From Eledone cirrhosa (Eukaryota), in NCBI GenBank assembly GCA_964016885.1, contig OZ024742.1:49910001-49974000 (forward strand): a stretch of DNA of 64,000 nt, written 5' to 3'. Numbering within the stretch: position 1 is the first letter of the stretch; the number at the start of each line of letters is the position of its first letter. Made by a program: the position numbers and the translations under genes. The notes under the pieces were generated by a model, which ran no database searches, had not been told where the DNA came from, and saw only the letters and a list, made by a program, of their open reading frames with translations. Of the stretch, positions 3,751 through 61,881 are shown in pieces.

Positions 3751-4132
3751 ATTTACATTTTACTAATATTTTAATACATGCATATATAAAACATGTGTGG
3801 ATACTTGGAAGGATATGCATTCAGACATTCAGAAATTAAACACTTATATATGCATAATTATAAGCCTATGTGTATGAGTATATATGTACATATGCATGTG
3901 CATGCTGTTGTGTGTGCATGTGTATTTTTGTATATATACTTTAATAAATATTTCATTTAAATGGCCAATGTGTGTTGTGTGCCTGAGAATGAATGTGCTG
4001 TTAAAGAATCTGTTTGAAATGACTACTATGGGAGCTGTTTCCAAACTTAGCACTCTTCCTTTCTTATTTGTTTCTCTCCACTCCGTATATGGATATATGA
4101 GTGTATATATACCTATTAATGTGTATGCATAA

Positions 4133-18040: not shown

Positions 18041-18270
18041 AGTACATTATGAAGAGAGAAGAAACATTTAGATATAATTACTAATAAGATGTATCATATC
18101 TAAACTGCTTCTAGATTCCTCGACTACCTCACAAAAGCTCTATATCTCTATGATGTATTGTTTTTGATTATGCCTGAAACTACGTAGTCGAGTAATCTAG
18201 AAGCAGTTTAGGTATGATACATCTTATTACTAATTATATCTAAATGTTTCTTCTCTCTTCATAATGTACT
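18041..18270 (+). mobile_element. ultra-short PLE remnant: degenerate hammerhead, 3' tail and inverted tail copy
   Basis: IR arms 18041-18127 / 18184-18270; spacer holds ctc...tgatg...gaaac-tacgta-gtc-gag; followed by (TA)n. Confidence 0.55.
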
Positions 18271-18504
18271 ATATATATATATATATATATATATTTCGTT
18301 TCTGAATTTGTTTAGCAAGATTCTTTATTTGAAAACGTGTGTTGAAACCGATATTGTTATACTTTGGGAGGGTCATGTTGCCAATAAGAAACACACGCAC
18401 CAGCCGCTTTCACTTCAATTTATTATAATAAATTTATAAATTTAGGAATTTATAAATTTCAGGTTGGTTGGTTGGTTCCACAACCAGATGGTTGTTTATA
18501 TATT

Positions 18505-18546
18505 GTCAAAGTTCTTTCTCACACATTCGGTGACCTCTTCAGTGAC
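18505..18546 (-). ncRNA. minimal type I hammerhead ribozyme (slightly decayed)
   Basis: reverse complement: gtca-CTGAAGA-ggtcaccgaatgtgtga-GAAA-gaac-tt-tgac. Confidence 0.55.
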
Positions 18547-19711
18547 TGGGGATTCTTTTCTTTGTTTTTGTGCCTATCCTTTGTTCTGTCCTACGCCATC
18601 TTGTTTCTGTGTGTGTGTTGTGTGCTCAGTCTGCGCAAGCGCCACATCCGGATGTCTGTGTGTGTTTATATTCGTTTATTTATTTGTTTATTTACATGTT
18701 ACTGGTTGGTTGTTTGTTCTATGTGCGTATGTGTTTTCATTTTGTCCTTAATTGTAAATTGTGATGTTGCTGTTTCACTCATGTTTTCTATTTAATTTTG
18801 GTTGTAATTCTTTTATGTTTATTGCCTCTGTGATTTGTCTAAACATTGCGTCTTTTCTGTGTGTAGATTCTATTTTTATTTCTATCTTCTCTAATTTACC
18901 CTTATGTTCTATTTTAGCACGTTGGTAGAGTACAGATGATTCTTTACTATCTTGAAGGTCTCGCCAGTGTTCATTTATCCGTTCCCCTACACTACGGGCT
19001 GTCTCACCTATGTACACTATATGTTTATCTCTACATTGTCCTTCAGTACATCTTATGCTATATACTACATTTCTAGTTTTACAGTTAATATGGAGGCTTA
19101 ATTTACAGGTTATACATTTCTTATCTATACAGGGGGGTTTTTGAAAAGGGTATGCCCCCATATTAACTGTAAAACTAGAAATGTAGTATATAACATAAGA
19201 TGTACAATGTAGATGGACAATGTAGAGATAAAAATATAGTGTACATAGGTGAGACAGCTCGTAGTGTAGGGGAACGGATAAATGATCACTGGCGCGAGAC
19301 CTTCAAGATAGTAAAGAATCATCTGTACTCTACCAACATGCTAAAATAGAACATAAGGGTAAATTAGAGGAGATAGAAATAAAAATAGAATCTACACACA
19401 GAAAAGACGCAATGTTTAGACAAATCACAGAGGCAATAAACATAAAAGAATTACAACCAAAATTTAATAGAAAACATGATTGGAACAGCAACATCACAAC
19501 CTACAATTAAGGACAAAATGAAAATACACACGTACATAGAACAAACAACCAACCAGTAACATGTAAATAAACAAATAAATAAACGAATATAAACACACAC
19601 AGACAACCGGATGTGCCGCTTGCGCAGACTGAGCACACAACACACACACATAAACAAGATGGCGTAGGACAGAACAAAGGAGAGGCACAAAAACAAAGAA
19701 AAGAATCCCCA

Positions 19712-19754
19712 GTCACTGAAGAGGTCACATAATGTGTGACGAAAGAACTTTGAC
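19712..19754 (+). ncRNA. minimal type I hammerhead ribozyme
   Basis: gtca-CTGAAGA-g-gtcacat-aat-gtgtgac-GAAA-gaac-tt-tgac; stem I gtca/tgac. Confidence 0.65.
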
Positions 19755-19900
19755 AATATATAAACAACCATCTGGTTGTGGAACCAAACAACCAACCGGA
19801 AATTTATAAATTCCTAAATTTATAAATTTATTATAATAAATTGAAGTGAAAGCAACTGGTTCGTGTGTTTCTTATTGGCAACATGATCCTCCCAAAGTAT

Positions 19901-19994
<94 letters not shown>

Positions 19995-20157
19995 GTTTAC
20001 ATATACATAAAGTCATAGATATATATGTTGCAACTAATCCGTAAGCAACTAATCACATTCTTTCTAACTTGACCACTGCCACGTCACGATTCTTAGCCAT
20101 TTTTGAATCTATTTTTGGTGCGATCACTTTGGAAAACTAAATGTCTAATTTTGAATT

Positions 20158-20238
20158 TGTCTCCTTATGAATCCGATACTCCGGACATATCCTATTAATT
20201 GGATGTCTAAAAATACGGATGAAACCTTGGTAGAGATA
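20158..20238 (+). ncRNA. type I hammerhead ribozyme with extended stem II, copy 1
   Basis: tgtctc-CTtATGA-atccg...ggaca(ta)tcc..ggatgtct...cggat-GAAA-ccttgg-TA-gagata. Confidence 0.65.
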
Positions 20239-20815
20239 TAATTACGGTATGTCCACATTTCTTCTAAGTTTGAATTTGCACCTAAATGTGTATGGTTGAT
20301 GGTATATTTAGTCAGTTTCTACATGCTGTTGAAATGTTGGATAAATACTCAATTGGGGCCACCGCGAAGAGGCCGCTTTCGGTTATTTGTCTGAAATTTC
20401 TTCATAAGAGCCTTTATTCTCATAGCTTCGTCTAATTGATTTTTTATATGGTTAATTATACTAATTGGGAGGGGAAATGGTATATATTTTATCTAAGAAT
20501 TCTAAGGACATGATTTATGATATATTGCTCTGATTATTTTATTTATTTATTCTTCATAGAGCCACAGCGTGACCGGTTGCAATATATATATCTATGACTT
20601 TATGTATATGTAAACCTTTATATTTAATAATCTCCCGTTAGGTTGAGATACAATTGGGCGATATTTGGCTGCGCTTTCTAGCAACAAGCCTACCCGCCGT
20701 AAGCAACTAATCACATTCTTTCTAACTTGACCACTGCCATGTCACGATTCTTAGCCATTTTTGAATCTATTTTTGGCGCGATCACTTTGGAATACTAAAT
20801 GTCTAATTTTGAGTT

Positions 20816-20896
20816 TGTCTCCCGATGAATCTGATACTCCGGACATATCCTATTAATTGGATGTCTAAAAATACGGATGGAACCATGGTAGAGATA
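20816..20896 (+). ncRNA. type I hammerhead ribozyme with extended stem II, copy 2
   Basis: tgtctc-CcGATGA-atctg...cggat-GgAA-ccatgg-TA-gagata; consensus with copy 1 restores CTGATGA, GAAA and CCATGG. Confidence 0.65.
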
Positions 20897-21177
20897 TAAT
20901 TACGGTATGTACACATTTCTTCTAAGTTTGAATTTGCACCTAATTGTGTATGGTTGATGGTATATTTAGTCAGTTTCTACTTGCTGTTGAAATGTTGGAT
21001 AAATACTCAATTGGGGCCACCGCGAAGAGGCCGCTTTCGGTTATTTGTCTGAAATTTCTTCTTAAGAGCCTTTATTCTTATAGCTTGGTCTAATTGATTT
21101 TTTAAATGGTTATTTATGCTAATTGGGGGAGGAAATGGTATATATTTTATCTAATAATTCTAAGGACATGATTTATG

Positions 21178-21210
<33 letters not shown>

Positions 21211-32059: not shown

Positions 32060-32130
32060 TATTTTATCTGATGAGAACACAGATATCATCCTATGATGAT
32101 ATTTGTTTTTGAAATGCGCATAATAAAATA
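32060..32130 (+). ncRNA. minimal type I hammerhead ribozyme
   Basis: tattttat-CTGATGA-16-bp stem II (gaacacagatatcatc/gatgatatttgttttt)-GAAA-tgcgca-TA-ataaaata; predicted AUA cleavage after 32122. Confidence 0.88.
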
Positions 32131-60985: not shown

Positions 60986-61881
60986 GGTGGTCGTCGTAGT
61001 CATAGTGGTAGTAGAAGTAATACCCCTAAGCGTTATTATTGTTCATTTAGCTTGGGTTTGAATTTATCAATAACATTCTTTTCTTTGATTTTTCTCTTGA
61101 TTTCACTTGGGCTGTGTAATTTGTAGAATGGGAATATTATAAATATTCCCTGACCACATGTTGCTAGATGGTTACTTAGGGGTATCTGACGGCCATTTGG
61201 GTCTCTGATTTGTTGACGGTTTACCCGTGCCCGTTCCGGTAGTGCATTTCCCGTTTGACCGACATATAGTTCTTCACAATTCGGGCATTTAATGCAGTAA
61301 ATTAGATTTCTGCTTTTGCAGTTCATATTTGCATTTGGGAATATTTTTCCAGTTTTTGTTTTCATATATTGACCGGCGTGTATGGATTGACATGTGCCGC
61401 ATCGACTATCATTGCATTTAGATACAGTGAATGATTGGTCTTTGTTGTTAAGGTCAAACTTTGCTTTTGTTAGTAATTGCTTCAAATTTTTTGGCTGTCT
61501 TTTACTAAGAGTCAAAGATCGATCAGTGATTAAGCCTTTTAATTCATTACTTTGAGCAATGATCCGTAGGTTTGCTTTGGCAGTGTTGAAGATATTCTGG
61601 TGACATGGGTTGTGTGTCATTATAAATGGTATGACCAGTTCTTGGTTTCTTCTTCCTTGGGTTGTCCTAAGTTGTTGTATAGGTATTTTTTATAGCCCGC
61701 TGTATGCCATTTTCTATAAGTAGAGATGGGTATTTTTGTTTGAGCAAAAATTCTCTTAGTTCTGTTAGGCGTTTGTACCTGGTATTCGTATCTTCTACAA
61801 TGTATAAAATGTATAAAAGGTAGGAAATTTACCCATCTTATTACAGTTGAAAATTGCAAACTTGACTGTCATCACATATTA

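Follow-up and report, generated by a model that had tools for sequence, protein, structure and literature searches.

We believe that the tandem repeat in this stretch of DNA belongs to a family of non-LTR retrozymes that is likely copied in trans by PLE enzymes, probably from circular RNA. Judging from genomic sequence, we give this reading a probability of about 0.7. We have little doubt about one part of it, that the family is mobilized by PLEs and is non-autonomous. It is an ordinary-sized retrozyme-type element; what is distinctive is the architecture of its ribozyme, its long tail, and the explicit PLE signature of its insertions.

The window locus

The window is a stretch of 64,000 nucleotides from Eledone cirrhosa (contig OZ024742.1, positions 49,910,001 to 49,974,000). 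A first-pass annotation made from the letters alone described two direct tandem copies of a 658-bp unit, an inverted piece capping the 5' end, and TA tracts on both flanks. The cap and the tracts are as described and so is the period; the second copy turns out to be partial. The features are these:

20039..20696 then 20697..21183, + strand: direct repeat with a period of 658, 466 of 487 aligned bases identical
20039..20696, + strand: copy 1, a complete 658-nt unit
20697..21183, + strand: copy 2, partial (unit 1-487, 487 nt), terminating at start site 1 in (TA)n
19984..20034, - strand: short inverted arm of 51 nt, unit 538-588 reversed, its 3' end at start site 2, toward the left TA tract
19905..19990, no strand: left (TA)n target tract, common to the right end of the adjoining Neptune-like PLE
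21178..21199, no strand: right (TA)n target tract
20158..20238, + strand: type I hammerhead of copy 1, core and loop III mutated, predicted cleavage position after 20232
20816..20896, + strand: type I hammerhead of copy 2, two core positions mutated, predicted cleavage position after 20890
20811..20839, + strand: predicted 4-bp pseudoknot of 20811-20814 (5' of stem I) with 20836-20839 (stem II internal loop), from covariation
20243..20490 (copy 1) and 20901..21148 (copy 2), + strand: predicted rod of ~245 nt lying between cleavage site and start site 1, from folding against shuffles
20526..20626, + strand: 101-nt 'tail', bounded by the two 3' end sites of the family (unit 487 and 588); the window copy reads through it
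18280..19908: a young, very abundant Neptune-like PLE inserted as a two-armed palindrome, with the endonuclease end, the 3' region and a minimal hammerhead near 19716

Hammerhead 1 reads CUUAUGA with the loop CCUUGG, and the 5' strand of its pseudoknot is mutated; hammerhead 2 reads CCGAUGA and GGAA. The annotation argued that damage at different positions hides a canonical consensus, and the majority sequence of the family is canonical. The window locus itself would not release a monomer because both cores are mutated. It is an inert, decayed copy, a dead one, of a dispersed family without ORFs.

At the arm junction (window 20024-20056) 10 nt of the unit start are duplicated, a repeat that suggests microhomology-aided joining. 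About 110 nt upstream of each hammerhead (window 20039-20090 and 20697-20748) lie CCAAT-like and CRE-like motifs, which we take to be a possible internal promoter. A GTAAG in the same stretch could be a splice donor. The Rfam hammerhead models gave no match to the window region at E<=1; only microRNA models matched, on repeats. Elsewhere in the window, hammerheads of other families with a long stem II lie beside TA tracts at 32068 and 59014 (+), and related motifs occur in many of the loci of the family search. An 87-nt inverted repeat at 18041-18270 (97%, 56-nt spacer) is probably another two-armed insertion.

Size and composition of the family

The first-pass annotation proposed looking through the genome for further copies and for intact cores, and both are there. 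Exact searches of the 3.0-Gb genome, whose counts are lower bounds, found at least 816 matches to a 26-nt motif from the 3' half of the hammerhead, 1,063 to the site 1 motif and 336 to the site 2 motif; the control searches (reversed, for the 26-nt motif) found 0 in each case. Comparing the unit with the genome gave 3,994 first-look candidates, of which 40 were scored, and 39 of 48 cores are intact in BLAST-selected copies. The roughly 160 loci examined are a small part of the family: 28 top BLAST loci, 57 found with the hammerhead motif (among the first on contig C1), 11 with a short stem II, 43 new site-1 loci, 19 of subfamily D, and an array. The 11 are all the matches to the short-stem-II pattern, and every one is a family member.

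Unit lengths of the subfamilies range from ~658 to 686 nt. Copies of subfamily A diverge by 1.7-8% from their own majority sequence, subfamily B has units of ~666 nt (75-78% identical), and subfamily D (loci L179-L199, 88 motif matches) has units of 686 nt (79% identical). The units stand in tandem with one type I hammerhead in each. As the annotation held, there is no coding capacity: the longest stop-free frame is 65 aa in the doubled majority unit and 79 aa in subfamily D, with no match to a PLE protein. Li et al. (Li, Clavereau & Pollet 2026, preprint 10.64898/2026.07.22.740005; like the other papers cited, used here in excerpt) call a retrozyme 'active' when two consecutive units have complete hammerheads. 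Two adjacent intact cores are found in 8 of 12 tandem-hammerhead loci (hand count), so the family is active in this sense; the window copy is not. Contigs from three sequencing runs of one sample, whose kind is unrecorded, also contain the repeat, and such contigs cannot show RNA ends.

One locus is a long array of ~29.5 kb and ~45 units (45 hammerhead halves) on contig C1 at ~92,986,470-93,016,030 (loci L172, L173, L200 and L201). Its units diverge by ~5.5%, with a 5-unit periodicity and an altered stem II, and it is bounded by one 588 end and one 487 end like ordinary insertions. It is a satellite grown from one insertion and shows DNA-level expansion at a single locus. We considered the array as a master source of the dispersed copies and rejected the idea because its stem II allele occurs in only 1 of 198 other loci.

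The ribozyme and the fold of the unit

The annotation was right that stem II is long, with 50 nt separating CUGAUGA from GAAA, and wrong that the hammerhead is minimal. In stem II a 5-bp helix is separated by an internal loop from a distal hairpin, and the 5' strand of that loop would form a pseudoknot with four bases upstream of stem I. Across 40 diverse copies the named structure has 92% of its cells paired and shows 53 double-sided changes, where shuffles give 21; sliding the partners drops pairing to 30-46%. The double-sided changes reflect a few lineage events, since the copies are related and were picked for intact cores. The pseudoknot helix is 97.5% paired, both of its sides have changed in 10 of the 40 sequences, and its U-A and C-G forms co-occur (89,2/1,16). 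Covariation thus supports an extended stem II and a predicted pseudoknot, and this is not the minimal PLE-type hammerhead.

In subfamilies A-C stem III is of the palindromic dimer type (105 of 113 parsed copies). For the family this supports the dimer-type stem III of the annotation, in which two palindromic CCAUGG loops could pair to release a monomer; it does not carry over to the window locus, where both cores are mutated. Subfamily D has a stem III of three G-C pairs with a non-palindromic loop in 13 of 13 motifs, which were selected for that form. At L113:2030 there is yet another form, in which stem III has 2 bp. Loci not selected by ribozyme motif have 21 mismatches in 836 core positions (2.5%), against 7.1% elsewhere; measured by recurrent alleles the conservation of the core is marginal (P=0.049).

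The 245-nt rod folds better than shuffles in window copy 1 (z -3.1, 0 of 200 shuffles) and in 15 copies (z -2.5 to -9.2), for a stretch that was chosen after the fold had been seen. The majority of the 59 pairs in the rod are conserved from one subfamily to another, and 6 show double changes. The whole unit folds no better than shuffles (z -0.7, 20 shuffles).

Insertion ends and the pairing rule

The evidence for PLE mobilization, which the annotation had proposed, is in the insertion ends. In the 57 hammerhead-anchored loci, a sample not selected for ends, 81 of 97 arms have their 3' end at unit 487 or 588, and TA abuts these canonical ends in 76 of 81 cases (76 of 77 in a site-anchored sample). 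The two sites are 101 nt apart and each ends in an ATAT/TAT stretch matching the (TA)n target; subfamilies B and D have homologous sites. The 5' ends of the arms are variable in position. Arms lying back to back use one site of each kind in 34 of 35 hammerhead-anchored pairs and in 22 of 22 from the separate sample, or 56 of 57 pooled (P ~1e-16 against 49% expected), a count that leaves out the pairs with one unresolved end (18 in the first sample and 4 in the second). The window copy obeys the same rule. Many arms are at least one unit long (41/81 hammerhead-anchored, 14/77 site-anchored), and those that go beyond unit position 1 re-enter at unit 658 and then traverse both end sites.

These are partial tandem and inverted insertions with the tail at one end (the 56 of 57 resolved pairs) and a microsatellite target, as expected of an element mobilized by PLEs. 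The Neptune-like family next to the window copy ends in ATAT at two sites, which lie 60-70 nt from each other, and its resolved pairs are mixed in 9 of 10 cases (hand count, with ends at 3861-3872 taken as site 2). For the PAc PLE, PMC11167929 reports that reverse transcription in vitro has two internal starting points, with the tail lying between them, and that extension proceeds on both DNA strands; Craig et al. (PMC8557442) describe a PLE tail that is often at one end only. PLE mobilization is a strong inference because the end signature matches both this Neptune-like family and that literature.

The template

Units of one insertion diverge by 3.5-3.7%, against 9.5% between loci, and subfamily-type differences fall from 5.1% between loci to 0.9% within an insertion. 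The units and arms of one insertion are derived from a single subfamily template. In a few insertions (L007, L014, L020 and L164) subfamilies are mixed, which one circle could not yield unless the template was switched or recombination followed. Of the 24 arms in the site-anchored sample that reach the cleavage site, 23 run past it and the other stops within 10 nt. A circular template is favored, not proven, by arms that run past the cleavage site of a ribozyme whose core is conserved. The best fit would be a circle made by cleavage and re-ligation, as has been proposed for retrozymes and for PLEs, and we think it probable.

The best alternative is that PLEs mobilize the same non-autonomous family from an uncleaved linear multimer transcribed from tandem loci, with the hammerhead serving 5' processing or folding and no circle involved. 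Arms would pass the cleavage site on this scheme too, and chimeric insertions and long arrays do exist. The PAc work (PMC11167929) can also be read in its favor: unprocessed RNA is used in vitro and uncleaved RNA is the main substrate, hammerhead mutants are without effect on insertion, and no RNA-seq reads terminate at the cleavage site. Against it, variants specific to upstream or terminal units are absent (38 versus 34 with 8 nt trimmed). An apparent polarity signal of 183 versus 62 was rejected as an artifact of end alignment which that trimming removes; terminal units do have somewhat more non-consensus bases (249 versus 188). Nor is the 45-unit array the source of other copies, and inversion breakpoints do not recur between loci (by eye, both arm samples). 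A lineage copied this way would presumably lose length each round. We consider this explanation unlikely, and continue to prefer the circle.

The search for a partner

A second alternative would reduce the repeat to the pLTR of some autonomous PLE, its copies being 5'-truncated PLE ends. The ends, the inversions and the hammerhead are all PLE-type, and the ~160 loci sample only a small part of the family. What speaks against this is where the arms go: past unit 1 they enter unit 658 and cross both end sites, and the 41 of 81 arms noted above cover the whole unit. In the loci examined they loop back into the unit and never into a PLE ORF, as the annotation expected of a non-autonomous retrozyme rather than truncated pLTRs. 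Using tblastn with the Neptune frame we found PLE pieces only as separate neighbors, and none in the 19 subfamily D loci; the Neptune frame has no match in the doubled unit (best E 1.4). Flanks common to loci near the ends are few and mostly lie 14-127 nt off the element. This explanation is already largely refuted and we regard it as very improbable. A third idea makes the repeat a satellite or minisatellite that DNA-level recombination has spread, its hammerhead a fossil. This suits the array with its unit divergence and periodicity, but it can be dismissed: dispersed copies number in the hundreds, their 3' ends are fixed at two sites while their 5' ends vary, pairing of the ends follows a strict rule, the array itself is bounded by 588 and 487 ends, and the covariation is at the RNA level.

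If the family is a non-autonomous retrozyme, some PLE must supply the enzymes. The annotation suggested an autonomous PLE with a shared 3' end; there is none among the PLE pieces in the examined loci. No ORF with RT and GIY-YIG was found in the unit. Comparing the unit with 33 Neptune loci turned up no shared sequence beyond AT-rich matches or neighboring family copies, and the same was true of the 3' regions of other PLE endonuclease pieces and of two further RT-bearing PLE pieces.

The Neptune-like PLE adjoining the window copy, with which it shares a TA tract, belongs to a family of 33,574 first-look candidates in the genome and has an intact 995-aa frame elsewhere (L061:1537-4521). The clade call is based on a cysteine linker preceding the GIY-YIG motif, a feature that PMC8557442 describes; the one Pfam match, to RVT_1, is below threshold. 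We would name this family as the partner only tentatively, with the odds somewhat against it. Other PLEs are at hand. Frameshifted RT + GIY-YIG elements of another family, without similarity to the unit, lie beside family copies at L119:4300-7001 and L117:1-2600, and a 217-aa frame in the window (61036-61689, -) with a weak GIY-YIG match comes from a different family of PLEs (27% to the Neptune frame).

Relation to known systems

Animal non-LTR retrozymes (PMC7229834; 10.64898/2026.07.22.740005) are likewise ORF-less tandems with one type I hammerhead per unit, found as monomers to long arrays and co-occurring with PLEs. The axolotl HHR_Amex1, which cleaves as a dimer, has the same one-pair stem III and palindromic tetraloop (PMC7229834). 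The annotation considered the family larger than those known, and it does exceed the 150-450 bp of PMC7229834. However, the preprint of Li et al. reports animal retrozymes of 51-972 bp and a mean of 650 bp in ray-finned fish, so we have dropped size (658 nt) as a novelty. The family differs from these retrozymes in its extended stem II and pseudoknot and in its full PLE end signature. In vitro cleavage was seen in only 1 of 9 predicted retrozyme dimers of Xenopus, where 24 of 57 retrozyme families have a TE match.

The EN+ PLEs Neptune and Poseidon (PMC8557442, PMC11167929) also make partial tandems with an inverted 5'-truncated copy, an often one-ended tail and microsatellite targets, and their two internal RT start sites lie downstream of a hammerhead. 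Our family differs in having no ORF and a tail of 101 nt (~113 in subfamily D) where PLEs have 30-40 bp, and the one-of-each rule is quantified for it. Both of its start sites match the target; those of PAc are non-homologous (PMC11167929). The Chlamys elements such as MRC1 (Craig et al. 2021) are ORF-less PLE derivatives with pLTRs and head-to-tail copies too, but they are algal and their 3' sequence is common to autonomous partners, none of which was found for the present family.

According to Perreault et al. 2011 (PMC3088659), ~40% of hammerheads have a pseudoknot that links the regions of stem I and stem II, and base pairing between these regions is what our ribozyme has in common with them. 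It differs in that its 50-nt stem II has the partner strand in an internal loop and a further hairpin as its cap, and is combined with a dimer-type stem III. Among titles and the starts of abstracts from largely non-subscription literature, Repbase not included, we found neither this family nor a quantified one-of-each rule; the family may already be catalogued.

A proposed mechanism and its meaning

In our model a locus with two intact hammerheads would be transcribed and the ribozymes would cleave the RNA; those of the palindromic subfamilies would do so as dimers, those of subfamily D possibly as monomers. A host ligase would close a circle of ~658 nt. A PLE RT/GIY-YIG complex, likely dimeric, would nick both strands of a (TA)n tract, and two cDNAs would be primed, one per start site (487 and 588), where the ATAT/TAT stretches match the target. 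The cDNAs would proceed backwards around the unit, often beyond one full turn, and their far ends would be joined, giving permuted partial tandems and back-to-back arms. Rarely, an insertion would later grow in place into a long array. The most specific form of this idea has one dimeric enzyme making two cDNAs from one RNA circle at two fixed sites on opposite (TA)n strands, with a pseudoknot-stabilized hammerhead that switches between dimer-dependent and monomer-competent within the family. It is a speculation that we think somewhat less likely than not to be right.

The case for PLE transport of animal retrozymes has hitherto been based on co-occurrence and pLTR similarity, and the origin of the tandem and inverted insertions of PLEs was called undefined in PMC8557442. 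The family links these two questions through an integration signature that can be counted and that is common to an autonomous PLE in the same genome. It also gives the existing in vitro PLE assay a short template whose start sites are known, in circular and linear forms that could be compared, and it would supply natural variants of dimer-type and monomer-type ribozymes. If one enzyme dimer does read one circle, this would explain tandems, inversions and one-sided tails together, and the genomic copies of circular-RNA retrozymes would be a record of the PLE integration reaction.
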